Positions 7,406 through 59,720 of a stretch of 64,000 bases of DNA are shown here, in pieces. The stretch is from an uncultured Planctomycetaceae bacterium (GTDB lineage Bacteria; Planctomycetota; Planctomycetia; Isosphaerales; Isosphaeraceae). The stretch spans positions 1,984,001 through 2,048,000 of the forward strand of contig CAWIAD010000002.1 in the NCBI GenBank assembly GCA_963833985.1, read 5' to 3'. The notes under the pieces are model-generated. The model saw only the letters and a program-made list of their open reading frames with translations, was not told the DNA's origin and did not search any database. The position numbers and the translations under genes were made by a program. The first letter of the stretch is position 1; each line of letters starts with the position of its first letter.

Positions 7406-10400
7406 TCAATTCATTCTCCATAAGTGAACATAGCGGCTCTCCGCCCAGCCATGACCGAGGATGCCAAACCTGGCGGGAGAGAGCTCGATGACCCTGGCGC
7501 CGTCATGCTGCTCGAACCTATCGTCCAGCAAGAAGCGAGTCCAGGCGGTACCCCTGGGGTCCGCCAGCTTGTAAACGAAGAGCCGGCACCGGCTGTGATA
7601 GGGATTGAACGGATCATGCTCGCCCGCGACGATCTCCGGCTTGCCGTCGCCATCGAGGTCCGCGACCGAGAGCGAGTGCGGGCAGTGGATGCGATCAACC
7701 ACGTGTGGCACGAACGGCTTGTGCCGCGGGTCGCCGGTGTTCTCCAGCCAGGCCACGCGGGCGAAGTAGATTTGCCGGGTGTTCCAGTTGCCGTCTTCCT
7801 CGCCCAGGACGATGTCTTTCCTGCCATCGCCGTTGATGTCGGCGAGGGCCATGCGCGCCACCTTGGTGTAGCCATCGACAAGCAGGTGCGGCAGGAACTT
7901 GCCGTTGCCCAGGTTCTCCAGCCAGTAGGGCCCGGCGACCACGTCCAGCTTGCCGTCGCCGTCCAGATCGTACGGCACCATCTCCTCGCCGTAAGGAATC
8001 TCGGCGAGCACGCGGCGCTTCCAGGGACCCGCGGCCGGGTCTTCGGGAATCTCGAAGATCTCGGGATGGGTCCGGTCGTGATAACCGGCGACGAGCGCAC
8101 GCCTGCCGCCGGGCAAGAGCGCCCCGATGGCCGTGCCGTGCGGCCAGTCGCCGCTCCCCTTGCCTATGCGGTGCAGTTGCCAGCGGTCGTGCGCAGGATC
8201 GACGGCCTTCAGCCAGCACAGCTCACTGGAAAGTGCTTCGTAAAACTCCCTGGCACCCGGCGTGCCCACGAGCCCGATCAATTCCTTGCGGCCGTCGCCG
8301 TCCAGGTCATGGGCGTTCACGATCTGGACGACTCCGGGAACCTGGTGCCGTTGCCAGGACGGGCTCTTGTACCACCAGGCGCCGCAGACCACGTCGGGAG
8401 AACCATCGCCGTCGACATCGACCCACAGGATGTCCGTTGCGGTTGTCGGCTTCTGCTGGTCGATGAACTCGTGGCGAAACTTGGGAATCGGCGATGCCCC
8501 CTCGCGCTGCTTGTACACCTGGACCCAGCCGATGCAGTCGGGGTATTTGGAGTTGATGACCTGGCCGGCGTGGCCGACGATCTCCGGCACGCCATCGCCG
8601 TCCAGGTCGGCCACGACCGCCTCGTGCGTCCCCTCTCCCTGGTAGAGCAGTTCACGCCGCACGGACTTGCCCTGGTCGCCCAGGACGTATCGGAAGAGCC
8701 GGGCATCGTAGTTGTAGGGCTGTTCCCAGCCTCCCTCGGTCATCTCTCCCACGAACACGTTCGCCTCGTGCGTTCGGGGATCGCGCCAGGCGCGGAGCGA
8801 ATGTGCGAAGATCAGGTCATGGTCGATCGGGTGCTCGACCCAGGGATGCTGCGGATTGATTCCCACCTGGTTCTCGAACCATGAGAAGTGGCCGTCGCGG
8901 TACTCGGACTCGGCAATCACGGCGTCGAGCCGGCCGTCGCCGTTGACGTCCAGGAGCGCGGCGCGGCAAAAGTCCCGGAAACCAGGAGCAAGGCTGTGCT
9001 GCTGCCAGATCGCTCCGGAGAGCGGACCGGAGGCCGGCGGCGAGAACCAGTAGGGCCCGGAAACAAGATCCATCCGCCCGCTGGCCTCGAGCGCTCCGGC
9101 GGTCGTCCCCTCGACGTTAAGCCCCCGCTGGACGACCTGTTTCTTCCACGGCTTCGTCAGATCGCCGGTTGGCTTGTACACGAAGAGCGCCGGGGTCGAG
9201 CAGTACTGCGAGTTGGAGACCACCTCGGCCTTGCCGTCACCGTCCACGTCGGCCACGATGACGTCGTGCGGCCCACCGCCGTTGGGGTCCATGAGCGGAT
9301 CGATCGTGTGCTCGACGAAGGGCTGATTCAGGTCCCTGGCCGGTTTGTACCAGCAGAGGGTCCAGCGCTCGGGACCAGGACCGCGCAGGCTGTGGCCCGC
9401 GATCACCTCCAGCGTGCCGTCGCCATCCAGGTCCAGCAGTGCGGCCCCGCAGTGGAAGTGGCCGCGGCCGACCACGCCTTTCTCGAACGTGGACGGGCGG
9501 TACCAGTACATTCCCCCGACGGCGCCGATGACGACCTCCTCCCTGCCGTCACCGTCGATATCGCCGACGGCCGTGCTACCCGTTTCCTTGCCGTCGCCGG
9601 GCACCGGATCCAGCAGCAGGAGATCCCAGGAGCGCGATGGCTTGAAGGGCTCCGCGTCCGCCGTGTGCTGGCCGGGCCCCTGGTTCAGCCAGATGTCCAG
9701 CCGTGGCGTTTCCCAGTTGTACGGCTTGCTGAGGATATCGAGCCGGCCGTCGGCGTTCAGGTCGGCGACGCGCGCCTCGTGGAACTCCATGCCTGTCTGG
9801 AAGATCGTGTTGTGAAAGTGCCCTGCGCCGTCGCCGTAGCAGAGGAATGCCTGGGCCTTCGGATTGTCGGGATCCTTCCGCTCCTCGGTCCACTTCGCCA
9901 TCTCGGCGACGAAGATGTCGAGATGTCCGTCGCCGTCAACGTCGCCGACCTGGAGCGAATGAGGATGGATGAGCGTGCGTCCGATCAGGTCGTGCCCCTG
10001 CCAGCTTGCTGTCTGGAACGGATCACCCTGGCAGTCGTACCACTTCACCGGCCCGGACCCATCGCCGGGCGCGATCACCACCTGCGGGACCTTTGCCCCC
10101 TGCTTGAACCGGCCGGCGAAGATCAGGCCGCCGATATCGCCGATCCGGGTGGCGCGCCATTTGCCGGTCTTATCGAATGAGAACATGTGATTGCCTGCAA
10201 GGATCTCGGGCCGGCCGTCGCCATCGATGTCGCAGCTCGACATGCCCTCGGCGTACTTGCCCGCTCCCTCACCGGCGTTGCCGGAGAAGACGCGCTCGAG
10301 CGGCCACTCGGAGAGGTCGGACGGATGCGCCGGGATGTCGGCAACAAAGAGCGTGCTGGCTCCCTGGTTCCAGAACGCAAGCTGCGGCTTGCCCCGACCC

Positions 10401-10888
10401 TTGAAATCGGCAAAGCACTGGTCGTGGTGCTGCGTCTTGCCGGACTTCTTGATCGTGTGCCGCTCCCAGCGCGCGGCGGACTGCCAGTCCTTGCCCGGAT
10501 TGCGCCACCACCACACGCAGTTGCTCTGCCAGTCGCCGCCGAAGACGAGGTCGGGCCAGCCGTCGCCATCAATGTCGGTGGACGCTCCGCCCGCCTCGAC
10601 CGTGAGGAAATCGGGCTCGATGACCAGGCGCTCCCAGCCCTTGGCCGCCGGGCGATACCACACCAGCGCGGGGCCGATCTTGCGAAACCCGAGCACGAAC
10701 CCGTTACGGCCGCCATGGTCCAGGTCGGCGACCAGGCAGGCCGTCTGCTGGGTCGAGGTGCCGGGGCTGGCCAGGTCGCCATTCTTGCTCGAGAGATGCC
10801 GCCAGGACGGTTCGGCGGCGTCGATCGGGGAACCTCGGCCCGCGAGCAGCAGCAGGATGGCAAAGGGCACAAGCCGATGAGCTTTCAT
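7406..10888 (-). CDS. Large secreted FG-GAP/VCBS repeat protein (about three beta-propeller modules, 1160 aa)
   Basis: Start MKAHRLVPF with signal peptide and upstream GGGAGAA; many DxDGDG repeats. Confidence 0.85.
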   Translation of the reverse strand: MKAHRLVPFAILLLLAGRGSPIDAAEPSWRHLSSKNGDLASPGTSTQQTACLVADLDHGGRNGFVLGFRKIGPALVWYRPAAKGWERLVIEPDFLTVEAGGASTDIDGDGWPDLVFGGDWQSNCVWWWRNPGKDWQSAARWERHTIKKSGKTQHHDQCFADFKGRGKPQLAFWNQGASTLFVADIPAHPSDLSEWPLERVFSGNAGEGAGKYAEGMSSCDIDGDGRPEILAGNHMFSFDKTGKWRATRIGDIGGLIFAGRFKQGAKVPQVVIAPGDGSGPVKWYDCQGDPFQTASWQGHDLIGRTLIHPHSLQVGDVDGDGHLDIFVAEMAKWTEERKDPDNPKAQAFLCYGDGAGHFHNTIFQTGMEFHEARVADLNADGRLDILSKPYNWETPRLDIWLNQGPGQHTADAEPFKPSRSWDLLLLDPVPGDGKETGSTAVGDIDGDGREEVVIGAVGGMYWYRPSTFEKGVVGRGHFHCGAALLDLDGDGTLEVIAGHSLRGPGPERWTLCWYKPARDLNQPFVEHTIDPLMDPNGGGPHDVIVADVDGDGKAEVVSNSQYCSTPALFVYKPTGDLTKPWKKQVVQRGLNVEGTTAGALEASGRMDLVSGPYWFSPPASGPLSGAIWQQHSLAPGFRDFCRAALLDVNGDGRLDAVIAESEYRDGHFSWFENQVGINPQHPWVEHPIDHDLIFAHSLRAWRDPRTHEANVFVGEMTEGGWEQPYNYDARLFRYVLGDQGKSVRRELLYQGEGTHEAVVADLDGDGVPEIVGHAGQVINSKYPDCIGWVQVYKQREGASPIPKFRHEFIDQQKPTTATDILWVDVDGDGSPDVVCGAWWYKSPSWQRHQVPGVVQIVNAHDLDGDGRKELIGLVGTPGAREFYEALSSELCWLKAVDPAHDRWQLHRIGKGSGDWPHGTAIGALLPGGRRALVAGYHDRTHPEIFEIPEDPAAGPWKRRVLAEIPYGEEMVPYDLDGDGKLDVVAGPYWLENLGNGKFLPHLLVDGYTKVARMALADINGDGRKDIVLGEEDGNWNTRQIYFARVAWLENTGDPRHKPFVPHVVDRIHCPHSLSVADLDGDGKPEIVAGEHDPFNPYHSRCRLFVYKLADPRGTAWTRFLLDDRFEQHDGARVIELSPARFGILGHGWAESRYVHLWRMN

Positions 10889-10932
10889 GATGTTCTCCCT
10901 TGGTTGGTGCCGGCTCCTGACCGGCAGGTGCG

Positions 10933-12153
10933 TCAGGAAATCAGGGTCGGGTGTTCGGCTTGCCTGGGCGCTGTGGATCCCCGGCCCGAACGGCGCGCTC
11001 TGCCCATCAACAGAGAGAGGCCGCACAGAAGCAATGCGATCCCCGCGGCAATCAGCAAGCTTTTTTGCACGCCCAGGCTGACGGAAAGCGTGCCGATCAT
11101 CTTCGGAAAGAGCGTCGGCCCGAGCAGCCCGAGGGCGAAGATGATGCCGAAGACGCTGCCGTACTCGCCCGGCTCGTACTGTGCGAAGGTCACGCCCACG
11201 ATGGTCGGGAACATGGGCGCCAGGGCAAGGCCCGTGACCAGCACCGCGAGCACGGCGATGGAGGGGCTCCGCGTGCACGCCATGACCACGATGGCAGCCG
11301 CGGTCACAAGAGCAAGGATCGCGATCAGCCGTGTGCCGATCGCCGACAGGTTCCTGATCAAGGAGGTCACAAAACGGCCGGCGGCCATGGCCATCCCGAA
11401 AAAGCTGAGCACCCAGGTTGCGGCCCGCACGCTCTGGGCGTTCTGGCCGCCACCGTACATCTCGACCATGTACGGCTTGATCCAGGTATTCATGGAAATC
11501 TCCAGCGCGATGTAGCAGAGCAGGGCCAGCCCCGCCGCCAGCACCGGCGCTTCCCGCAGCAGGCGGAGAGCCGTGGCCACCTGGTATCCGGTCGCCACGG
11601 CAGGGTAGGTCGCGACCGTCGCCACGCAGGCGAACACCAGGACCAGCCCCGCCATCAGCATCAGCGCGAAGGTGAAGCTGAGCCCAAGGTCCCGGAGCAT
11701 CGCGCCCAGCGCCAGCGGCGTGAGCACGAAGGCCAGGCCGACGAAACCGTTGCCGAAGTTGCTGGCCCGAGCGGGGTCCTTGCCGCCGAAGAGCACCATC
11801 GGAATCAGCGTGTTGCCCACCGTGTTCACGCACATGGCGCCCACGCCCAGCAGGCCGCACGCCAGCAGTGCCATGCCGAAGCTGCCGGCGAGAGCCAGAA
11901 GGAAGAGTGCGGCGCTGGTGGCCAGAAAACCGGCGATCGCCATCGTCTTGTGCCCCAGCCGGTCCACGAGCAGGCCGACGAAGAGCTGCACGGCCAGGCT
12001 GGTGAGGAAAAGCGCCGTGGTCAGGCTGCCCACCTGGGAGTTGTCGATACCGAGCCTGGCCTTGAGCTCCTCGGACAGGGCGCCGATGAGGATGAAGCAG
12101 ATGGCCAGCGTGAAAACCGCCATCAGGGCCACAAAACCCGCGAGCGTTTTCAT
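10933..12153 (-). CDS. MFS transporter (putative sugar permease)
   Basis: About 12 hydrophobic segments; MFS motif A GLLVDRLGHK; PMFPT. Confidence 0.9.
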   Translation of the reverse strand: MKTLAGFVALMAVFTLAICFILIGALSEELKARLGIDNSQVGSLTTALFLTSLAVQLFVGLLVDRLGHKTMAIAGFLATSAALFLLALAGSFGMALLACGLLGVGAMCVNTVGNTLIPMVLFGGKDPARASNFGNGFVGLAFVLTPLALGAMLRDLGLSFTFALMLMAGLVLVFACVATVATYPAVATGYQVATALRLLREAPVLAAGLALLCYIALEISMNTWIKPYMVEMYGGGQNAQSVRAATWVLSFFGMAMAAGRFVTSLIRNLSAIGTRLIAILALVTAAAIVVMACTRSPSIAVLAVLVTGLALAPMFPTIVGVTFAQYEPGEYGSVFGIIFALGLLGPTLFPKMIGTLSVSLGVQKSLLIAAGIALLLCGLSLLMGRARRSGRGSTAPRQAEHPTLIS

Positions 12154-12163
12154 GAGCCACCTC

Positions 12164-13327
12164 TCAAAGCGACACCCAGACCGATCCCATGTCGCACGAT
12201 GCCACCCCCTGGGAGACGAACTCGAGTCCGCGCAGGCCGTCATGGACCGAGGGAAAGTCGTACTCCGAAATCGCCAGGGGACGACCTTCCAGGTGCCTGC
12301 GGACGGCGTCGACGAAACCGCAATAAATCGTGGCGAAGGCCTCGATGTATCCCTCGGGGTGACCCGAGGGCAACCGGGTCGACGCCGTGGCCGCGGGGGC
12401 GAGATACTCAGCGTGGCCGCGCGTCAGCACCTGCCTGGGCTGGCCGTACCGGAAGACGCCCAGGCAGTTCGGGTTCTCCTGCTCCCAGAGCAGGGCGGCC
12501 TGTGAGCCGTAGACCCTGAGCCGCAGGTTGTTCTCCTCGCCCGTGGCGATCTGCGAGACCGTGAGCACCCCCCGGCCCCCTCCCTTGAGCCGGAACAGCA
12601 GGTTCGCGTCTTCCTCGAGCTGCCTGTCCGGAAGGAACGTGGACCGATCGGCGGAGAGCTCCGAGATGCGGTCGCCCGTCACATATTCAAGCAAGTTGAC
12701 GCAGTGCACACCGGCCTCGCCGAGCGTGCCCGCAATGCCCACCTGCGCGGGGTCAACGCGCCACATGGCCTGCTTCTGGCCGTGCTTCTCGTGGGGAAAG
12801 GCCAGGAAGTCTTGCAGGTACTCGACGATCACCTTGCGTATGGCGCCCACCTGCCCGCTGCGGCAAAGCTGGCGCGCGTGGCGCACCAGCGGATGCCCGG
12901 TGTAATTATGTGTGAGCGCCAGGACCAGACCGGATCGCTCCACCAGTTGCACGAGTGCCCTGGCCTCGTCGAGAGCGTAGGCGAGCGGCTTGTCGCAGAC
13001 GACGTGGAAGCCCGCTTCCAGGAACGTCCGGGCGATCGGGAAGTGCGAGACCGTGGGCGTGACGATGGTCGCGAAATCGATCCGGCGGCTGGCCGGCAGC
13101 TGGAACTCGCGCGACGCCATCTGCTCGTACGAATCATAACACCGTTCGGGGTCAAGATAGAGCTGGCGGCCGGTTTCCCTGGTGTTGGCCGGATCGCGCG
13201 AGAAGCATCCGGCGACCAGCTCGATCTGCTGATCGAGAGCGGCCGCCATGCGATGCACTGCGCCGATGAAGGCCCCCTGGCCGCCGCCGACCATGCCCAT
13301 GCGCAGCTTGCGTTTCCAGGAGTTCAT
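12164..13327 (-). CDS. Gfo/Idh/MocA family oxidoreductase
   Basis: LRMGMVGGGQGAFIGAVHR, HVVCDKP, PSGHPEGYIEAF. Confidence 0.95.
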   Translation of the reverse strand: MNSWKRKLRMGMVGGGQGAFIGAVHRMAAALDQQIELVAGCFSRDPANTRETGRQLYLDPERCYDSYEQMASREFQLPASRRIDFATIVTPTVSHFPIARTFLEAGFHVVCDKPLAYALDEARALVQLVERSGLVLALTHNYTGHPLVRHARQLCRSGQVGAIRKVIVEYLQDFLAFPHEKHGQKQAMWRVDPAQVGIAGTLGEAGVHCVNLLEYVTGDRISELSADRSTFLPDRQLEEDANLLFRLKGGGRGVLTVSQIATGEENNLRLRVYGSQAALLWEQENPNCLGVFRYGQPRQVLTRGHAEYLAPAATASTRLPSGHPEGYIEAFATIYCGFVDAVRRHLEGRPLAISEYDFPSVHDGLRGLEFVSQGVASCDMGSVWVSL

Positions 13328-14394
13328 GGTGGACCTCCTTCGTGTGACGAGAGTCCCAGCAGGGCGCGATTGCGCTGCGCGTCGGACCGGCCGCCGGCAA
13401 AGTCATCGAAGGCGACGGAGGTTGCGTCGATGAGATGGCTGACGATGAAGGGCGCACCCTCGCGGGCGCCCTGCTCGGGGCTCTTCACACAGCATTCCCA
13501 CTCCAGGACGGCCCAGCCGCGGTAACCGGCCTCGGTGAGAAGCGTGAACACTTGCCGGAAGTCGACCTGGCCGTCCCCCAGCGATCGGAATCGCCCCGCG
13601 CGCCCAGGCCAGTCCTGGTAGCCGCCGTAGACGCCGATCCTGCCGTCGGGCCGGAACTCGGCATCCTTCACGTGGAAGCCGGCGATCCGACGGCCGTAAC
13701 ACCTGATGAACTGGAGGTAGTCGAGTTGCTGGAGCACGAAATGGCTGGCGTCGTAGTTCAGGCAGGCCGCCGGGTGGTCGTCCACCTGGCTCAGAAACAT
13801 CTCGAACGTGGCACCGTCGAACAGGTCCGACCCGGGGTGGAGCTCGAACGCGAAGCTCAGCCCCGCATCGGCGGCCGCGTCGAGCAAGGGACGCCACCGG
13901 CGCGCCAGCTCGGCGAAGGCCTCATCGATGATTCCCGGTGGACGCTGCGGCCAGGGGTAGGCCATGTGCCACGCGAATCCGCCGGAGAGCACGGGAATCG
14001 TCCTCGTTCCCAGCCGGGACGATGCCGCGATCACGTCGCGGAGCTGCGCCGATGCCCAGTCGGAGATCGCCCGGCCGGAGAGACCCTGCGGGTAAAAGGC
14101 GTCGAACATCCGCTCGTATGCCGGATGAAGTGCCAGCACCTGCCCCTGCAAGGCCGCGCACAACTCGGTCACGCTGAGACCGTGTTCGGCCAGGCGCGAC
14201 CGCAGGTCATCGCAGTACGCTTGCGACCGTGCCGCCTGGGCAAGATTGAACACGCGCGGGTCCCAGGCCGGGATCTGAAGCCCCCTGTAGCCCAGCCGCG
14301 CCGCCCAGGGGGCCAGGGTGGCCATGTCGTTGTAGGGAGGTTCCTCGCGCAGGAACTGCGCCAGGAACAGGCCTGGACCAAGCATCCCGTTCAT
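13324..14394 (-). CDS. Sugar phosphate isomerase/epimerase (xylose-isomerase-like TIM barrel)
   Basis: FELHPG, NYDASH, FHVKDAEF, VLEWECC metal-ligand pattern. Confidence 0.9.
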   Translation of the reverse strand: MNGMLGPGLFLAQFLREEPPYNDMATLAPWAARLGYRGLQIPAWDPRVFNLAQAARSQAYCDDLRSRLAEHGLSVTELCAALQGQVLALHPAYERMFDAFYPQGLSGRAISDWASAQLRDVIAASSRLGTRTIPVLSGGFAWHMAYPWPQRPPGIIDEAFAELARRWRPLLDAAADAGLSFAFELHPGSDLFDGATFEMFLSQVDDHPAACLNYDASHFVLQQLDYLQFIRCYGRRIAGFHVKDAEFRPDGRIGVYGGYQDWPGRAGRFRSLGDGQVDFRQVFTLLTEAGYRGWAVLEWECCVKSPEQGAREGAPFIVSHLIDATSVAFDDFAGGRSDAQRNRALLGLSSHEGGPP

Positions 14395-14432
14395 GACGAA
14401 CCTCCCCACCGATGGCAAAGCCTTCCCTTCCC

Positions 14433-15443
14433 TCAGGAGGGCGGAGCCGCCGTCGAGCCGCGCACGATCAGAGAGCCGGGCAGAACCACTTGCCTGGGCT
14501 TGCCGGAGAACCCGCCGATGCGCTCGATGAGGAAGTCCAGAGCGCAATCGATGATCTGGCGGTGAGGAAACCTCACCGTGGTCAGGGGCGGGTCGAGATA
14601 CTCGGCCGCCCATGTGTCGTCAAAGCCGACGATGGAGACGTCCCGCGGCACCGACAGACCCATGTCGCGCAGGCCTCGAAATGCGCCGAACGCCATGACG
14701 TCATTGTGGCAGAAGAGGCCGGTCGGGGGCCGGGAACGGTCCATCAGCAGGTGCACGGCCTGGCGAGCTTCCTCCGCGCTCTCATCGGGACATTCGATGA
14801 TCATGGGCGCGGGCAGGCGGGCCCTCAAGAGCACGTCGGTCAGGGCCCGCGTCCGGGCGCTGCGGAGTGAGGTCCGGCGGCTGAGATGGCCAATCCTGCG
14901 GTGTCCCAGCTCGATCAGGTGCCTGACCGCAAGGACCGCGCCGCCGTAGTCGTCGAGGATCGCGCTATCCGCCTTGCCCGCCGGCGCCGCCGAGCCGAAG
15001 TAGACCAGGTGCACTCCGCTCAGGGAGGAGAGCCCCTGCTTGCCATAGCTCTCGTTCCACCAGTGCAGGATGCCGGCCACTTTCCAGCTGAGCAGCGTTT
15101 CCACGGCCTGAACCCGATCGCTGCGCCGCGAGTTCAGCTCGGTGACCTCGAACAGCGCCCGGTACTTGTGTTCCGTCACGCGGCGGTTGAGATAGGCGGC
15201 CAGGCTGGCGAAGAACGGGTTCTCGACGTACTCGATGACCGCGCCGATGAGCTCGCTCTGCGAAACCAGGCTGCGCGCCAGCCGGTTGGGCCGGTAGCCC
15301 AGTGACCGCGCGGCGTCCCAGACGCGCTGGCGCGTGGCCTCGGGAAAGCTGGCGTCGCGGCCGTTCAGCACCATCGACGCCGTTGTGGGCGAGACAGCGG
15401 CGCGGGCGGCCACATCACGGACGGAAGCACGTCGGTTCAGCAA
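14433..15443 (-). CDS. LacI family transcriptional regulator
   Basis: HTH SVRDVAARAAVSPTTASMVLN, YRPNRLARSL, VSIVGFDD, PPLTTV; start inferred (TTG overlapping upstream stop). Confidence 0.93.
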   Translation of the reverse strand: MLNRRASVRDVAARAAVSPTTASMVLNGRDASFPEATRQRVWDAARSLGYRPNRLARSLVSQSELIGAVIEYVENPFFASLAAYLNRRVTEHKYRALFEVTELNSRRSDRVQAVETLLSWKVAGILHWWNESYGKQGLSSLSGVHLVYFGSAAPAGKADSAILDDYGGAVLAVRHLIELGHRRIGHLSRRTSLRSARTRALTDVLLRARLPAPMIIECPDESAEEARQAVHLLMDRSRPPTGLFCHNDVMAFGAFRGLRDMGLSVPRDVSIVGFDDTWAAEYLDPPLTTVRFPHRQIIDCALDFLIERIGGFSGKPRQVVLPGSLIVRGSTAAPPS

Positions 15444-16378
15444 GTTTGCAGAAGCTCCTCGGCCCGGCGCACGATCGCCTGGCAATCCAGACCGTAGTGA
15501 GACAGCAAGCGGCGGAAATCTCGGCCCGAGCTGGCGAAGCGATCGTCCAGGCCCACTCGCAGTACGCGAGTCGGATGCCGCTCCGCCACGACCTCGCAGA
15601 CCGCGGATCCGAGGCCGCCGTGGATGTTGTGGTCCTCGATCGTGACGATCCCCGCGGTTTCACGAGCCGCGCTGAGGATCGCTGCGACATCGATCGGCTT
15701 GATCGTGTGGCAGTCGAGCACGCGCGCGCTCAGGCCCCGGGACGCGAGGATCTCGGCAGCCCGCATGGCCTGCTCGACCATGTGGCCGGTGGCGATAAGG
15801 GTTAACCCGTCGCCGTCGCGCAGGCGAATCATGCGGCCGATCTCGAACGGGATATCGGGCCGATGCAGGACCACGGCATCCTGCCGGCCGAGACGCATGT
15901 ACACAGGCCCCTCGTAGCGGGCGATGGCCTCGGTGGCCAGGCGGGTGGTCACAGGGTCGGACGGCGAGAGCACGACCAGGTTCGGAATCGCGCGCATCAC
16001 CGCCAGGTCCTCGCAGGCCTGGTGCGTGGGGCCGTCGCCGCAGATTTCCACGCCCGCATTGCAGGCCACGATCTTCACGTTCAACCGCGGGTAGGCCACG
16101 CTCGAGCGAACCTGCTCGGCGGCCCGGACGCCGGCGAAGATGCAGAACGTGCTTGCAAACGGTATCTTTCCCGTGGTGGCCAGCCCGGCCGAGAAACTGA
16201 CCATGTTCTGCTCGGCCGATCCCATGTTGAAGAACCGTTCGGGGAACTGCCGGGCGAAGTGGAAGGTGTTGGTTGACTTGGAGATGTCGGCGTCGAGCAC
16301 CACGATGCGGCGGTCCCGGGCGCCGAGCTCGGCAATCGTTTTGCCATAGACCACTCGATTGGGCTGAGCTTCAAGCAT
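15437..16378 (-). CDS. Transketolase, C-terminal subunit
   Basis: FPERFFNMGSAEQNM, GDGPTHQACED, EDHNIHGGLGSAV. Confidence 0.95.
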   Translation of the reverse strand: MLEAQPNRVVYGKTIAELGARDRRIVVLDADISKSTNTFHFARQFPERFFNMGSAEQNMVSFSAGLATTGKIPFASTFCIFAGVRAAEQVRSSVAYPRLNVKIVACNAGVEICGDGPTHQACEDLAVMRAIPNLVVLSPSDPVTTRLATEAIARYEGPVYMRLGRQDAVVLHRPDIPFEIGRMIRLRDGDGLTLIATGHMVEQAMRAAEILASRGLSARVLDCHTIKPIDVAAILSAARETAGIVTIEDHNIHGGLGSAVCEVVAERHPTRVLRVGLDDRFASSGRDFRRLLSHYGLDCQAIVRRAEELLQTC

Positions 16379-16547
16379 GGGCGCTGGTTCCAGCTCGTAA
16401 AAGCACGGGGTGGCGTATCAAAAACAGAGAAACAAACCACGGAGAGAAATTCATGGATTCAAGAGAATCGTTCCATGGCGAAAACGTAGAGTCAAAGGCG
16501 CCTGGGTCCCTCGAATAGCCGTCGAAGCTCAGGATTGAAAACGAACG

Positions 16548-16579
16548 AACCACAGAGAGCACAGAGAGCACGGAGAAAA
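16548..16579 (+). repeat. Left arm of 9-bp-unit inverted repeat flanking the GxxExxY gene
   Basis: AACCACAGAGAGCACAGAGAGCACGGAGAAAA; complementary to 17025-17057 and to the arms in the array. Confidence 0.9.
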
Positions 16580-16617
16580 GACTCTTGAAATTCAGAATAG
16601 TTATATGTGCTAAATTT

Positions 16618-17001
16618 CTAGAGTCGAAGCCGCTTGATTCCCTGGGATAGCTGTCGAACGTGGAAATTGATCAGGAGACCGACCGGGCAGCCGGAAAGCT
16701 TGAGGTAAGAGAGCACCTGTGCTTCATGGATGGGCGTCAGCTCCTGTACGGCTTTCAACTCAACAATCACCGTTTGCTCGACGAGCAGGTCCACCCGGTA
16801 GCCGCAGTCGATCACGAGCCCCTTATACGTCAAGGGCAGCATCTTCTCGCTATCCACCCACAGCCCCTGATTCTTCAGTTCGTGAACCAGGCACGCATGA
16901 TAGGCGGATTCGAGCAATCCTGGCCTGAGCGTCCGGTGCACCTCGATTGCCCCCCCGATAATTCTCCCCGTGAGTTCATTGATCGCCTCTTCCGTGACCA
17001 A
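16618..17001 (-). CDS. GxxExxY protein (PD-(D/E)XK nuclease-like)
   Basis: 127 aa; GLLESAY motif, RVDLLVE...VELK, GLLINF; AAGGAGG upstream of TTG; lower GC than neighbours. Confidence 0.95.
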   Translation of the reverse strand: MVTEEAINELTGRIIGGAIEVHRTLRPGLLESAYHACLVHELKNQGLWVDSEKMLPLTYKGLVIDCGYRVDLLVEQTVIVELKAVQELTPIHEAQVLSYLKLSGCPVGLLINFHVRQLSQGIKRLRL

Positions 17002-17660
17002 CTCATACCCCTCCTTCGATTCGATTTCTCTCTGTGCTCTCTGTGATCTCTGTGGTTAGAACGCTTTGATTTCCTGCTGTGGTCCCCCGAGTATTTCCCG
17101 CAGCGCCGCATCGGTTTGCTCGGGCGAGGTCGGCCAAACTTCCCCGTAATTTCATTGATCGCCTCTTCCGCAACCAACTCTCTCTCTCCAGTTCGATTTC
17201 TCTCTGTGCTCTCTGTGCTCTCTGTGGTTAGACCGTTTTGATTCCCTGCTGTGGTCCCCCGAGTATTTCCCGCAGCGCCGCATCGGTTTGCTCGGGCGAG
17301 GTCGGCCAAACTTCCCCGTAATTTCATTGATCGCCTCTTCCGCAACCAACTCTCTCTCTCCAGTTCGATTTCTCTCTGTGCTCTCTGTGCTCTCTGTGGT
17401 TAGACCGTTTTGATTCCCTGCTGTGGTCCCCCGAGTATTTCCCGCAGCGCCGCATCGGTTTGCTCGGGCGAGGTCGGCCAAACTTCCCCGTAATTTCATT
17501 GATCGCCTCTTCCGCAACCAGCTCTCTCTCTCCAGTTCGATTTCTCTCTGTGCTCTCTGTGCTCTCTGTGCTCTCTGTGGTTAGACCGTTTTGATTCCCT
17601 GCTGTGGTCCCCCGAGTATTTCCCGCAGAGCCGCATCGGTTTGCTGGGGCGAGGTCGGCC
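16960..17660. repeat. Tandem array of four 172-181 bp units (transketolase 3' end + 9-mer array + GxxExxY 5' end)
   Basis: Units at about 16960-17135, 17136-17307, 17308-17479 and 17480-17660; the stop-codon TTAG recurs at 17056, 17228, 17400, 17581. Confidence 0.95.
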
Positions 17661-18432
17661 CGGCGTGCCACTCCGCCTTGTCTTCCATGAACGAGACGCC
17701 CTTGCCTTTGATCGTGTCGGCCACGATCACGCTGGGCCGTCCGTTCCGTGTCATGGACTGCTCGACGGCGGCGTCGATGGCTGCGAAGCTGTGCCCGTCA
17801 ATCTCGTGGGTGTTCCAGCCGAACGCCGCGAACCTGGCCGCGATCGGTTCGACATTCATGATGTCGCTGGTGCGGCCGTCGGTTTCGAGCTTGTTGTTAT
17901 CAACGAACACCACGAGGTTGTCGAGGCGGTAGTGTGCCGCGGCCATGGCGGCCTCCCAGACCTGTCCCTCCTGAAGCTCGCCGTCACCGACCATACAGTA
18001 AACCGTGAAGTCCTTGCCGTCGAGTTTGCCGCCGGCCGCGATTCCGGCGGCGGCCGAGATGCCCTGGCCCAGCGAACCGGTCGACATATCGACTCCCGGC
18101 GTCTTGTTCATGTCGGGATGTCCTTGCAGCCGGCTGCCGATCTCGCGCAGGGTCCAGAGCGTCTCCTCCGGAAAGTATCCCCGGGCCGAGAGGGTCACGT
18201 AGAGCGCCGGGCAGCAGTGGCCCTTGGAGAGCACGAACCGGTCGCGGTCTTCCCAGCGCGGCCGCTCCGGATCGATGCGCATCTTTTGAAAGTAGAGGTA
18301 AGTGATGATGTCGATCGCCGACATCGAACCGCCGTTGTGGCCCGACCCGGCCAGAGCGATCATCTTCACGATGCGGGCGCGGGACGCGCGGGCAAGCTCT
18401 TCGAGCCGCTGGACCGGAAACTCGTGGGACAC
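17581..18432 (-). CDS. Transketolase, N-terminal (TPP-binding) subunit
   Basis: DRDRFVLSKGH, LQGHP, STGSLGQG, TPP motif GDGELQEG...NN, KGKG. Confidence 0.95.
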   Translation of the reverse strand: MSHEFPVQRLEELARASRARIVKMIALAGSGHNGGSMSAIDIITYLYFQKMRIDPERPRWEDRDRFVLSKGHCCPALYVTLSARGYFPEETLWTLREIGSRLQGHPDMNKTPGVDMSTGSLGQGISAAAGIAAGGKLDGKDFTVYCMVGDGELQEGQVWEAAMAAAHYRLDNLVVFVDNNKLETDGRTSDIMNVEPIAARFAAFGWNTHEIDGHSFAAIDAAVEQSMTRNGRPSVIVADTIKGKGVSFMEDKAEWHAGPTSPQQTDAALREILGGPQQGIKTV

Positions 18433-18443
18433 GGTGAGGGCCT

Positions 18444-19241
18444 CTACTGGTTTTTTTCCAGGACCGCGCGCTGGTGTTCCTCGGGAAAGCGGCCGAAGAC
18501 GGTCCAGCCGCCGTCCACGAAGAAGACCTGGCCGGTCATGTAGCTGGAGTCATCGGACGCAAGGAAGACGCACGGGCCGACCATTTCTTCCGGGGCGGCC
18601 GTGCGCTGCATCGGCGTCATGCTGCCCCAGACGCGGTCGTAATCAGGATCATCGCAAAGATTGCGCTCCACGCGGGTTGGCCCGGGAGCAAACGTGTTCA
18701 CGCGTACGCGGAGCGGTGCGAACTCGACGGCGAACTGCCTGGTCAGCGCGTGGATTCCCCCTTTGCTGGCGGCGTACACCGCCAGGCCCTTCACGCCCAG
18801 TTCGGCGCAGTTGGTGGAGACGTTGATGATGCTGCCACCATCACCGCGTGCCGCCATGATGCGGGCCGCCTCGACCGAGCAGAAGAACGTGCCTTTCAGG
18901 TTCGTGCCGATGATCCGTTCCCAGGACTTCTCGTCCACGCGAAACGGGTCGGTCCAGCCGGTCAGGCCGGCGTTGTTGACCAGGATATCCAGCCGGCCGA
19001 AGGTCTCGGCCGTGCGCGCGAACATGTGCTTGACGGCCGCGACGCTGGAGACATCGGCCGCCATCGTCTGGCTGCGTCGTCCCAGGGTCGCGATCTCGTT
19101 CGCGACGGTCTCGGCCCCCTCGCGGCTGGTGTGGTAGTTGACCACGACGTCGGCCCCGGCGCGTGCCAGGCCCAGCGCCAGCGCCCGGCCGATGCCCGTT
19201 CCCGCGCCCGTCACCAGTGCGACCTTGCCACTGAGCTTCAT
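18444..19241 (-). CDS. Short-chain dehydrogenase/reductase (SDR)
   Basis: TGAGTGIG, NNAG, YAASK. Confidence 0.95.
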   Translation of the reverse strand: MKLSGKVALVTGAGTGIGRALALGLARAGADVVVNYHTSREGAETVANEIATLGRRSQTMAADVSSVAAVKHMFARTAETFGRLDILVNNAGLTGWTDPFRVDEKSWERIIGTNLKGTFFCSVEAARIMAARGDGGSIINVSTNCAELGVKGLAVYAASKGGIHALTRQFAVEFAPLRVRVNTFAPGPTRVERNLCDDPDYDRVWGSMTPMQRTAAPEEMVGPCVFLASDDSSYMTGQVFFVDGGWTVFGRFPEEHQRAVLEKNQ

Positions 19242-19252
19242 GAGTGCCGTTC

Positions 19253-20287
19253 TCACGCGCCGTAGTAGAGGAGGACTTTGAGGGCCTCGCCGCGCTCGCA
19301 GAGCTCAAACCCGCTGTGCCATTGCTCGAGCGGCAGCTTGTGGGTGATCACCCGCGCGAGGTCGATCTGGCGGTTCTCGAGCAGCCGCATCGCGCGTTGC
19401 CACGTATTGAGCGAATGCCCCACGGAGCCGAAGACGCGCAGCTGCTTGAAGAGGATTGTGTCGAAGTTGACCGTGATTTCCTTGCCGGCGATCCCGATCT
19501 GGACATAGCGGCCGAGCGGGCGCACCGCCTTCAGGCACGTGGCCACCGAGCCGGCCGCGCCGGCGGCCTCCACGGCCATGTCCGCGCCGCGTCCGCGCGT
19601 CTGCTCGCCAACCACTTCCAGCAAATTCTGGCGATCGCAATCAACCGTCACTGCCGCTCCCAGCCGGGCCGCCAGCGCCAGCCGTGGCGCGTCTGTGGAC
19701 CTGCCCGCGACGATCACCTTGCAGCCTTGCAGGTTCAGGACCATCAGGCAGAGCAGTCCAATGGGACCCGGCCCGGAGAGCAGCACCCAGTCTCCCGGGG
19801 CCGCGGGAGCCAGCTCGCCGACGGCCTGAAGCGCCGCCGCGAATGGCTCGGTCACGGCCGCCTCCTCGAGCGTGATCCCCTCCGGCAGCTTGTAGCACTG
19901 GTCTTCCCGGACGTTCACGAACCGCGTCAGCGAGCCGCTCACGCCGTGCCCCATGCCGCGGCGAATGGGGCAGAACATGTAATACCCCTGCCGGCAGTAT
20001 TCGCAACCGCCGCAGACCACCGCGGAGGACGGCAAGACCACCACGCGGTCGCCGGCGGCGATGTTCCGCACCCCGGCGCCGGTCTCGCACACAGTACCCG
20101 AGAATTCGTGTCCCAGGATCACCGGAGGGTAGTTGGGGAACCGGTCGTGCAGGACGTGGATGTCGGTTCCGCAGATGCCCGTGAAGGCGACCTCGATCTT
20201 CACCTGATGCGGGCCGCACGTGCATTCAGGCACGTCGACGAGCTCGACGTTTCCCGGTCCCGAGCGAGTTTTCACGACGGCCCGCAT
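19253..20287 (-). CDS. Zinc-dependent polyol/alcohol dehydrogenase (MDR family)
   Basis: GICGTD, GHE, CGGCEYC...C, GPGPIG; start MRAVVK after GGGAGG. Confidence 0.93.
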   Translation of the reverse strand: MRAVVKTRSGPGNVELVDVPECTCGPHQVKIEVAFTGICGTDIHVLHDRFPNYPPVILGHEFSGTVCETGAGVRNIAAGDRVVVLPSSAVVCGGCEYCRQGYYMFCPIRRGMGHGVSGSLTRFVNVREDQCYKLPEGITLEEAAVTEPFAAALQAVGELAPAAPGDWVLLSGPGPIGLLCLMVLNLQGCKVIVAGRSTDAPRLALAARLGAAVTVDCDRQNLLEVVGEQTRGRGADMAVEAAGAAGSVATCLKAVRPLGRYVQIGIAGKEITVNFDTILFKQLRVFGSVGHSLNTWQRAMRLLENRQIDLARVITHKLPLEQWHSGFELCERGEALKVLLYYGA

Positions 20288-20315
20288 GGTCAGCCTCCCG
20301 CCGTCCGGCACTTCC

Positions 20316-20333
20316 TGGTGAAACGTTTCACCA
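20316..20333. promoter_or_regulatory. LacI-family operator
   Basis: Perfect 18-bp palindrome TGGTGAAACGTTTCACCA between the -10 box and the first gene of the operon. Confidence 0.85.
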
Positions 20334-20362
20334 AAGCTATCCACGCTCCGGACCGGCGTCAA
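20334..20362 (-). promoter_or_regulatory. Sigma70-type promoter of the sugar operon
   Basis: Minus strand TTGACG-N17-TAGCTT directly upstream of the operator. Confidence 0.7.
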
Positions 20363-20409
20363 GAGAGTGCAGCCGCAAAGGCACAGCACATAAAAGATTG
20401 ATTCATATT

Positions 20410-21618
20410 CTAGACCGAGAATGAACCTGCGCCGGCCTGCGATTCGCGGCGGTAGGCGCTGGGCGTCTTGCCGTCATGTTTGCGGAAGCAGGTGGAAAGA
20501 TACTCGGGGTACGCGAAGCCGGTGCGCTGGGCGATCTCCTCGAGAGAGAGGTCCGTCTGCGAGAGCAGCTCACGGACGCGCTGGAGCCGCACTTCGTGGA
20601 TGGCGTCAAGGATTGTCTTGCGCAGCGATTTCTGGAACAGCCGCTGGAGCATGCTGCGAGACATTGACACATGTTCCAGGACGTCATCGACGCGGATGCC
20701 CTGGCAGGCATGTTCGCGGATGAACCGTACGGCGTCGGCCAGGCGCGGGTCCTCGATGGCCGTGACGTCGGTCGACTGGCGCGTGACGACGCCGAGTGGA
20801 GGAATCGGGTTCAGGGGCAGGGCCGGGGGCTGGCCGCTCATCATGCGGTCGAGCAGGCCGGCGGCCTCGTAGCCGATGCGCCGGGCGTCGGGGACGACGC
20901 TCGAGAGCGGCGGGTAGGCAAGCTGGCAGACCAGCTCCTCGTTGTCGACGCCGATGACGGCGACCTCCTCCGGGACCGCCACGCCGGCAAGCCGGCAGGC
21001 GTCCAGCAGCTGCATGCCGCGGATATCGTTGCCCGCCATGACGCCGAGCGGCTTGGGCAGCGTACCGATCCAGCCGCCCACACGCTCGATCTCGTCCTCC
21101 CACGAGTCCTGCTGGTGGCCCCACGAGACGGGCCTGGTGTGGGGACGCTCGTGGAACGTGCCCCCCGCCTCGCGTACCCGGCGTGCGAACGCGTCATGCC
21201 GGCGCACGGACCACTCGAAGACGGGAAAGCCAAAGTAGGCAAAGTGGCGGAACCCCCGCTCCAGCAGGTGCTCGGCCGCCAGCCGGGCGATGGCCGCGTG
21301 GTCGGCGTGCAGCTGGGGCAGGCCGAGGTCGCGCACCTGGTCATTCAGGTCGACCGTGGGGACGCCGGTCTCCAGCAGCTTGCACGCGCTCTGGGGCGTC
21401 GACGCACGGGCGATGATGCCATCGCCGTTCCAGCGGTCGATCCAGGGTGGCATCTCGTCGTGAAGCGACCGCTGCTCGATGTACACCGTCCACGGTCCGT
21501 GCTCGCGGACGTACTGGGAGATCCCCTCCAGGATGGCGCGTCCGAAGGCCGTCGACGTCTCGACGATGAGCGCGACGTGGGGCAGGCGCAAGACATGAGA
21601 ACGCGAAGAGGTATGCAT
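20410..21618 (-). CDS. XylR-like regulator (LacI-type sensor domain + AraC HTH)
   Basis: VALIVETSTAFGRAILEGI, VPEEVAVIGVDN, C-terminal EIAQRTGF...TPSAYR. Confidence 0.92.
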   Translation of the reverse strand: MHTSSRSHVLRLPHVALIVETSTAFGRAILEGISQYVREHGPWTVYIEQRSLHDEMPPWIDRWNGDGIIARASTPQSACKLLETGVPTVDLNDQVRDLGLPQLHADHAAIARLAAEHLLERGFRHFAYFGFPVFEWSVRRHDAFARRVREAGGTFHERPHTRPVSWGHQQDSWEDEIERVGGWIGTLPKPLGVMAGNDIRGMQLLDACRLAGVAVPEEVAVIGVDNEELVCQLAYPPLSSVVPDARRIGYEAAGLLDRMMSGQPPALPLNPIPPLGVVTRQSTDVTAIEDPRLADAVRFIREHACQGIRVDDVLEHVSMSRSMLQRLFQKSLRKTILDAIHEVRLQRVRELLSQTDLSLEEIAQRTGFAYPEYLSTCFRKHDGKTPSAYRRESQAGAGSFSV

Positions 21619-22235
21619 AAAAAGGGGAGTCCCGAGACGCGGAAATCGATTGGCGATTTCTTCTGCCGGAACCGTACAGGCCTGGCCGGATTGTACAGCC
21701 GGGCCATGCGGCCGACGGCCCCGATGGCCTTTGTTCTGCTCCGAAACCTCGGCGAATGCATTCTAGAAGAGCATTCGCGCCAGGTCCAGCAATGTGACGG
21801 CGAGTACCGGAAATCATAGGCAGAAAAACCGAAAAACTCATGGATCTCCCGGCGCGACCTGTTAATCTCAGGCTGGAGACCGGGGTCTCCGGTGCTCGTC
21901 TCAGGCAAGCAGGAAGCGATCCGGGCGCCCGTGAAGATGGCTGCTGTGCAAGTCGTCGGGCGGCCCGGAAGGGGCGGTCTTTTCGTTGTCGGTGGTGCGC
22001 GGGGCGGCCCGCTTCTCGGCCGCTGGGCCGGGTGCGAGGCGGCCGCGGGGGGTCGGACCGCGCGTCTCCATCAAGGCGAACCGAGCTGTGCATTCGGTTC
22101 CGACGTGACGGCCTGCCCGTGCGGCGCCGGTGATCGCGGTGTGCGCACAAATCAGATCACATGTTCGTGCGCTCGTTCCCCGCTGTGATTCGTTTCGCCA
22201 CGTTCTTGTCCGCGTGCCCTATCCGGGAGGCATTC

Positions 22236-59303: not shown

Positions 59304-59720
59304 TCAGACGCCGGCGCCGGCCTTCTGCTTCACGGGCTTGGTGCGCGCGGTCTTCCAGTCGTCGTACAGCGCCTTCAGCTCCTCGACGGTGACGCCGCCA
59401 TGGTCCTCGCCCGAGTGCCAGCGGCCCATGAGCACCGTGAGGCGGTCGCGGAGCGGCCCGCGGGGCAGGAACTTGCCGTGGAACTTCTTCAGGACCTTGA
59501 GCCGCGGATCCGCCGGCGGCCTCGGCGGCGCCTTGGGCTTCTCCTCCTTGGGAGCGGCCTCGGCGCCTTCCTTCTCCTTCTTGGCCTTGGCTTTGTCCTT
59601 GTCCTTGTCTTTGTCCTTCGGCTTGGCCTCGCCCTTGTGCTGCTTGCCGTCGCCCTGCGGATGGGCCTTGGCCTTGGCTTTGTCCTTGTCTTTCGCCTTG
59701 TCGCCGTCTTTACTGGCCAT
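59304..59720 (-). CDS. Small Lys/Asp/Ala-rich hypothetical protein
   Basis: (KD)n/(KA)n low-complexity N-terminus, ordered C-terminus, high-GC codon usage. Confidence 0.7.
   Translation of the reverse strand: MASKDGDKAKDKDKAKAKAHPQGDGKQHKGEAKPKDKDKDKDKAKAKKEKEGAEAAPKEEKPKAPPRPPADPRLKVLKKFHGKFLPRGPLRDRLTVLMGRWHSGEDHGGVTVEELKALYDDWKTARTKPVKQKAGAGV

Follow-up and report, generated by a model that had tools for sequence, protein, structure and literature searches.

GxxExxY genes and their inward-facing 7-mer arrays: a possible selfish DNA system, as seen at a transketolase gene pair

Introduction

Two described bacterial systems combine a nuclease with its own cognate repeats. In the REP/REPIN/BIME systems, a small nuclease gene encoding RAYT (TnpA-REP, a Y1 HUH enzyme) has inverted copies of its cognate repeat on either side, intergenic DNA holds many inverted pairs that lack a gene and vary in spacer, local tandem amplification takes in flanking DNA, and the gene has a long vertical residence, as described in PMC3333891 and PMC3733652. 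TnpA-REP cleavage has been proposed as the cause of the amplification of REP clusters (PMC3333891). In the Ssn system, a small single-domain nuclease is flanked on both sides by its own dispersed repeat (NTS/SRM), and repeat variants co-vary with the protein (Chenal et al. 2025, PMC11893778). All of these features are shared by the GxxExxY genes described here. The enzymes differ, however: RAYT is an HUH-tyrosine enzyme (PF01797) and Ssn has a GIY-YIG fold, whereas the GxxExxY cassette protein matches PF13366 only and its top structural matches are PD-(D/E)XK nucleases, with no GIY-YIG hit in Pfam among 95 family members. The repeats differ as well, in that REP repeats are short palindromes with a GTAG/CGTC foot and the SRMs of Ssn are hairpins of 20–50 nt (PMC11893778), whereas the GxxExxY arms are direct arrays of a non-palindromic 7-mer, set in inverted pairs and without such tags. 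Ssn is a site-specific single-stranded DNA nuclease; the GxxExxY proteins are putative nucleases. Because its fold is PD-(D/E)XK and its repeats are non-palindromic arrays, the GxxExxY system lies outside both REP/RAYT and Ssn/NTS; by analogy it appears to work like both while being a member of neither, and it does not look like a classical IS.

Other known systems share some of its features. Like IS elements with MITEs, GxxExxY cassettes come in gene-bearing and gene-less forms with inverted ends, have 8-bp or TA flanks in some sub-lineages, and leave filled and empty alleles of one site (at tkt, genomes G000 and G002; at cheA, 7 filled and 3 not among 10 loci), but they lack a transposase gene and a general target-site duplication (TSD), and their gene-less pairs mostly have unrelated spacers. 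Cas4/RecB-like PD-(D/E)XK nucleases such as SSO0001 share the predicted fold and the D-ExK and QxxxY motifs, but the protein studied here is 127 aa long, is 17–19% identical, and has neither Fe-S cysteines conserved in the family alignment nor a CRISPR context. Intervening sequences in 23S rRNA hold four-helix-bundle ORFs (TIGR02436) and thus also place a small ORF inside an inverted repeat; GxxExxY cassettes differ in lying in mRNA operons, in encoding another protein family, and in showing no sign of selection for an RNA stem. As to the GxxExxY family itself, PF13366 is listed as of unknown function in PMC3424549, and one paper names GxxExxY in passing, beside a reverse transcriptase. The RAYT survey in PMC5581495 has 0 occurrences of tandem inverted repeats in planctomycetes, and a literature search that covered sources other than subscription journals and supplements found no description of a partnership between GxxExxY nucleases and repeats.

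Results

The window analysed is a 64,000-nt stretch of the source genome (G000), positions 1984001–2048000 of contig C2. ORF calls and profile searches place a GxxExxY gene between two halves of a transketolase:

15437–16378, minus strand: transketolase C-terminal subunit gene (tkt-C), host flank
16618–17001, minus strand: GxxExxY gene, 127 aa, TTG start (TIGR04256, PF13366)
17581–18432, minus strand: transketolase N-terminal subunit gene (tkt-N), host flank

The first-pass annotation, made from the letters alone, had described a 127-aa GxxExxY gene of lower GC content between the transketolase halves, and this description is correct. The GC content of the gene is 56.8%, against 64.2% and 65.9% for the two tkt halves, and the protein matches TIGR04256 (E 2.4e-44; 150.4 bits against a cut-off of 35) and PF13366 (E 1e-41; 142.4 bits against a cut-off of 22), its sole Pfam match. 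The motif that names the family is G28-x-x-E31-x-x-Y34. The cassette is a single ORF, with no DDE, HUH or recombinase gene by Pfam, and no sigma-70 promoter or minus-strand terminator was found between 16200 and 17800. A sugar-catabolism cluster around the transketolase pair (window ~9900–21900) has a close orthologue in 1 other of 121 genomes of the order and itself appears to be patchily distributed. Elsewhere in the window, a degenerate 6-bp array (CTTGGC ×19.7; 59580–59700) is probably a low-complexity coding stretch, and a long open frame on the minus strand (7406–12160), whose true start is probably internal, has in its 3′ part many DxDGDG repeats that we take to be FG-GAP/VCBS-like.

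On both sides of the gene lie inward-facing arrays of CACAGAG plus 2 nt, giving a 9-bp period (16551–16576 and, inverted, 17544–17579). The arms and the repeats around them are as follows:

16434–16450, plus strand: decayed outer right arm with a single CACGGAG core; putative right end of the insert
16487–16526, minus strand: decayed copy of the GxxExxY 3′ end, 32/43 nt identical
16532–16579, plus strand: right inner arm, AAC plus three cores (CACAGAG, CACAGAG, CACGGAG; 2-nt linkers) at 16548–16576, with an outer inverted match of ~16 nt
16965–17660, minus strand: 172-bp tandem array, four units
17028–17057, minus strand: left arm adjoining the intact gene, three cores
17200–17229 and 17372–17401, minus strand: two further left arms inside the tandem array
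~17136–17177, ~17308–17349 and ~17480–17521, minus strand: three 14-codon 5′ stubs of the GxxExxY gene
17544–17582, minus strand: left arm at the true tkt-N stop, four cores, its start overlapped by the TAA stop
17584–17613, minus strand: outer partial arm unit and linker, encoding the last ~9 tkt-N residues; putative left end of the insert

Left and right arms match as inverted repeats over 45–48 nt at 85–87% identity; as a pair they score 61, where the 99th percentile of 400 random windows is 31. The first-pass annotation had seen the 9-bp arrays, their inversion and the upstream stop codon inside an arm correctly, but where it had drawn a single left arm there are four copies in the 172-bp array. 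Each 172-bp unit joins the last ~27 tkt-N codons to the arm and to the first ~64 nt at the 5′ end of the cassette. There is no difference between units 2 and 3; unit 1 contains one core more, unit 4 continues into the intact gene, and the arm at the tkt-N stop lies ~520 bp away from the left arm that adjoins the gene. Compared with the intact gene, the 14 codons of the stubs show A/T, I/L, K/R and F/I substitutions and one silent difference, and the stubs likely represent a sibling allele rather than decay. An assembly artefact is an unlikely source of the array: its units differ (153–172 identical positions, one extra core), and similar arrays occur at other arms.

Orphan arms, suspected in the first reading of the sequence, occur throughout the source genome, which has 71 two-unit arms at 31 loci. 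A looser pattern returned 58 three-unit arms (~5 of them chance-like by eye) and 0 in two shuffles. All two-unit arms belong to three core types, and these are the types that flank the genome's three GxxExxY genes, the other two of which have arms of their own (CACGAAA and CAC(A/G)AAG). Many of the arms form gene-less facing pairs, 90–200 bp apart. Long tandem arrays hold an arm in 6 of 151 cases, against 0.26 expected, and 24 of the 71 arms lie inside such arrays. Because GTAG-type hairpins in the same genome are tandemly amplified too, amplification is not specific to arms. At four sites (C2:36844–37920, locus L185; C1:569224; C2:736672; C2:2735451), arms are found nested with GTAG-type hairpins and CAGTGGG 7-mer arrays and are amplified together with them (173 bp ×6), and small repeat families of different kinds pile up at the same intergenic sites. 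RAYT and four-helix-bundle genes were rejected as arm partners, none being found within 15 kb in this genome; its 7 Y1 transposase (PF01797) hits lie >15 kb from the nearest arm.

An empty allele of the tkt site exists. Among the 121 genomes in the order-wide comparison, only G002 has a close orthologue of the tkt region; synteny extends over ~10 kb at 77–78% identity, the tkt halves of G002 overlap directly, and the window is longer by ~1,207 bp net at the tkt-N/tkt-C junction. Another 21 loci matching both tkt halves, some of them fused single genes, gave no GxxExxY hit. Judged against the empty allele, the cassette at tkt is an insertion, as the first-pass annotation had proposed. In the window tkt-N ends in GGPQQGIKTV, in the empty allele in DRQ-stop, and the last tkt-N residues in the window appear to derive from the insert. 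Because the outer arm units supply the last codons and the stop of tkt-N, and the cassette ends just before tkt-C, the operon likely stays readable. The ends of the insert are bracketed (~16434 to ~17613) rather than placed exactly, since the sole close orthologue among the 121 genomes is ~80% identical. As the earlier reading had noted, the tkt locus has no classical TSD: the best flanking 8-mer matches at 6/8, which does not exceed the matches at other offsets.

The arrangement is not peculiar to this genome. From 154 GxxExxY loci, 95 were kept after removal of 22 that were partial or broken, 18 with short flanks and 19 that were redundant. Inverted flanks scored above threshold (the 99th percentile of 400 random windows) at 73 of these 95 genes, compared with 40 of 469 mismatched pairs, and under a strict arm pattern 53 genes had inward arms on both sides, 24 on one side and 18 on neither. 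In a held-out set of 37 loci (55, from which 12 lacking the anchor motif, 4 near-duplicate loci and 2 short loci were removed), 28 passed the inverted-flank test. Other GxxExxY genes share the flanking inverted arrays, and the same gene-plus-arms design occurs across many phyla. Genomes have 1–10 GxxExxY matches each, and among 41 relatives, which as kin are not independent, strict arms were present in 20 of the 25 that carry the gene and in 3 of the 16 in which it was not found. Those three (G037, G011 and G028) have 15, 4 and 1 strict arms and no GxxExxY gene was found in them; gene loss or a divergent partner is possible. Viral contigs gave 3 pattern matches, with no relative among them. 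Individual loci show further rearrangements. At G020:C12:108537–109643 (L035/L051) the gene and its arms are duplicated in tandem as one cassette, with a period of 765 bp, and in the closest homologues (L022 and L023, 78% and 73% identical) a palindromic insertion of ~35 bp splits the right arm. At locus L124, the gene is followed 3′ by a truncated second GxxExxY copy, a hairpin repeat and what looks by eye like the start of a GIY-YIG (Ssn-type) gene, so that two repeat systems look to be neighbours there.

The AlphaFold2 model of the window protein has a pLDDT of 97, and its top structural matches are PD-(D/E)XK nucleases, the best being Cas4 SSO0001 (PDB 4ic1; Foldseek E 6.4e-4). By VIA, SSO0001 aligns with Z 8.2 and an rmsd of 3.9 over 99 residues, and the next rows have Z 7.9 and 7.3, values that do not settle the exact fold neighbour; on the model, the protein is likely Cas4-like. 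The fold neighbours are mostly DNases. Across the 95 sequences D71 is invariant, and E41, E81, K83, H92, Q95 and Y99 are at least 90% conserved; all are present in the window copy, in which the predicted catalytic residues D71, E81 and K83 and the Q95-x3-Y99 motif are intact. At position 26, however, the window protein has Arg where at least 90% of its relatives have Gly, and this G26R change may impair it. In Pfam searches, PF13366 matched 95/95 family members and Cas4 weakly matched 5/95. The family comprises 20,455 clusters at 50% identity (E ≤0.001), including two-domain fusions, of which P0001–P0007 and others are ~250–295 aa long with two GxxExxY domains in tandem; from these fusions, single-domain members may act as dimers. 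A sequence search of the PDB gave 0 matches at E ≤1, and the ESM Atlas, with PF13366 clusters excluded, gave no usable match.

Protein and core word co-vary, in line with the link between protein and arm that the first-pass annotation had drawn. Among the 53 genes with both arms, like core types group together on the protein tree, with 25 changes against 37.2 when shuffled and 0/200 shuffles as low; CATGAAG cores form one clade (support 94/98) that spans four named phyla. Residue 11, in helix 1, goes with core base 5: T occurs with G 32 times and with A once, whereas S or A occurs with A 31 times and with G 4 times (rule holds in 63/68). In the held-out set the counts were T-G 15, T-A 0, S-G 2 and S-A 6 (21/23), plus G-A 2 and V-G 1. 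Residue 11 was chosen post hoc from 127 columns and the control for kinship is weak. The best tree has 9–10 changes, and the independent pairs with strong branch support number only 2, which does not suffice for a test. We therefore treat the association as a lead, one that would be consistent with direct reading of core base 5 by residue 11 of helix 1.

Discussion

Our results suggest a selfish DNA system, apparently not described before, in which a small nuclease-family enzyme likely recognizes and nicks its own repeats. On balance, we lean towards a model in which the protein binds its own 7-mer arrays as DNA and nicks nearby, with host repair giving arm-centred duplications and occasional new copies. 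In this model, the Cas4-like protein would recognize each 7-mer core, at a 9-bp pitch, in DNA rather than in an RNA stem; it would nick the DNA beside the arms; repair of the nicks by the host would yield arm-centred duplications and, rarely, new copies; and, in the manner of REP/RAYT and Ssn/NTS, spread would be slow and vertical residence long. Counted against the nick-and-repair model are the 18 of 95 genes without strict arms, the possible impairment by G26R, the lack of a TSD excess, the IS-like ends on recent copies and the amplification of GTAG hairpins as well. A bolder version, which we consider rather unlikely, would make GxxExxY proteins the motors of an undescribed class of mobile DNA, in which a 14-kDa Cas4-like nuclease with a simple residue-to-base code could move or amplify any DNA that two facing arrays enclose, with no transposase involved, and would be directed to gene junctions within operons.

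At the cheA junction, 7 of 10 loci in a genus hold the cassette, 2 of the 7 in broken form, and the outer arm unit again forms the last codons of the upstream gene. The dN/dS of GxxExxY at this site is 0.105 (10 pairs), and the flanking genes have values of 0.17 and 0.11. The cassette at cheA is long resident, vertically kept and under purifying selection, with a divergence like that of the host genes, which fits domestication as well as selfishness. There was no sign of an inversion switch, the gene having one orientation at 7/7 filled cheA loci. The description of the cassette as mobile, made in the first reading, is accordingly right with a qualification: the insertion relative to the G002 empty allele and the patchy presence agree with it, but at cheA the cassette has been held in place across the genus under purifying selection. 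Cassettes are patchy and do move, though slowly.

Other enzymes may have been responsible for the clearest recent moves. In genome G007, a ~265-bp element bounded by TA and by short terminal inverted repeats is present in nine copies (89–100% identical), which have at least 4 distinct flanks (L319–L327) and carry a gene-less arm pair in their middle; we take the element to be IS630-like, with TA duplication. GxxExxY genes 95–98% identical to one another occur in different flanks (L068, L069, L124 and L126), two of them on one chromosome. This sub-lineage has extra GTA...TAC ends at five sites, which include gene-bearing and gene-less forms and whose flanking 8-mers match at 8, 8, 7, 6 and 5 of 8 positions, compared with 2/8 for one alternative inner end. 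Across L191–L220 of genome G137, the GTA...TAC terminal word has 60 matches (≤1 mismatch), against 15 for a reversed control; between its two ends lie arm arrays, GxxExxY genes and other palindromes, and 8-bp repeats lie in its flanks. With IS66- or IS630-like ends on the clearest recent copies, and with one old site that has been inherited vertically, self-mobility is no more than a possibility.

These observations bear on the strongest rival, which we hold to be rather unlikely: the arm-recognizing protein would serve the host, as an Ssn-like filter on incoming or single-stranded DNA or as a regulator, and cassettes and arm pairs would depend for any movement on homologous recombination or on derivatives of ordinary DDE transposases that carry them along. 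The long residence at cheA, with a dN/dS like that of flanking genes, would be expected of a host function, and the TA-ended copies of G007 would suit passenger movement. So would the G137 copies, whose GTA ends and 8-bp repeats follow the pattern described for the IS66-family element ISDge4 (PMC12898284), and the precedent of Ssn points the same way, in that SsnA modulates transformation (PMC11893778). However, no IS66 transposase was found in the G137 genome, and in G000 and G004 the majority of arm pairs lack IS-type ends and enclose unrelated spacers. The cassettes are, moreover, patchily present, some copies are broken (2 of 7 at cheA) and their gene neighbourhoods are unrelated, as is typical of selfish DNA.

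It is improbable, in our view, that the protein is itself a minimal cut-and-paste transposase that pairs the arms, cuts the ends and inserts with an 8-bp stagger. The five GTA...TAC sites, the near-identical genes in different flanks, the failure to find an IS66 transposase in G137 and the dimer suggested by natural two-domain fusions would all suit such an enzyme, but those 8-bp ends look IS66-like, and TSDs are not seen elsewhere. None was found at the tkt locus, at 13 convergent arm pairs in G000 or, measured near the arms, at 20 gene-less pairs in G007 and G004, and a general test on 53 loci, measured from the inner arms, gave 2/53 at ≥6 nt, against 0–5 in controls. The copy number, 1–10 matches per genome, is also low. 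In addition, PD-(D/E)XK enzymes normally hydrolyse DNA rather than transfer strands, and in Tn7 TnsA only nicks.

Another reading gives the arms a role as RNA, in which they would pair on the transcript, loop out the ORF and be processed like an rRNA intervening sequence, as the first-pass annotation had suggested; we think this very improbable. The transcript does fold in silico with the arms paired (−233 kcal/mol, z −3.55), although this is expected of any inverted repeat, cores are complementary within a locus, and 37 of 47 cassettes with a called neighbour (on crude ORF calls) are co-oriented with the upstream gene. The pattern of matches between left and right arms argues otherwise. Core columns match at 83–100%, the variable ones among them at 0.83–0.99 against 0.49–0.77 across loci, whereas the two linker positions match at 0.49 and 0.61, against 0.38 and 0.44 across loci, meaning that linkers are complementary in only about half of cases. 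Mismatches between the arms are not biased towards G-U on the mRNA strand (G-U 37 and A-C 42, p 0.65; held-out loci, G-U 5 and A-C 13). With linkers that fail to pair and no excess of G-U, the stem idea lacks support. Neighbouring units of a single arm have the core in common as well, which a stem would not need, Rfam gave one match, at chance level (E 0.64), and the fold neighbours, as noted, are mostly DNases. The arms thus look like putative DNA binding sites rather than an RNA stem.

Finally, although kinship alone would cluster core labels on a tree and the independent pairs are too few, we discount almost entirely the idea that the arrays are neutral products of slippage, passed on next to the gene but not physically linked to its protein, since both arms and distant gene-less pairs bear the core of the resident gene, every unit on both sides changed core together at the cheA locus of G012, and cores persist while linkers and spacers diverge.

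In summary, what is new here is the empty allele at tkt, the linker and G-U comparisons that bear on the RNA stem, the residue-to-base association with its held-out check, the dN/dS at cheA and the finding that recent copies have IS-like ends. No function is known for the very large GxxExxY/PF13366 family, and the flanking arrays give each of its members a candidate substrate, while the pairing of residue 11 with base 5 offers a one-mutation test of direct recognition. If the nick-and-repair model is true, GxxExxY would add a third enzyme fold, after the HUH RAYTs and the GIY-YIG Ssn nucleases, to the design in which a nuclease is combined with cognate repeats. It would also explain a widespread kind of intergenic repeat and local tandem amplifications, and would offer a panel of very small sequence-specific nucleases.
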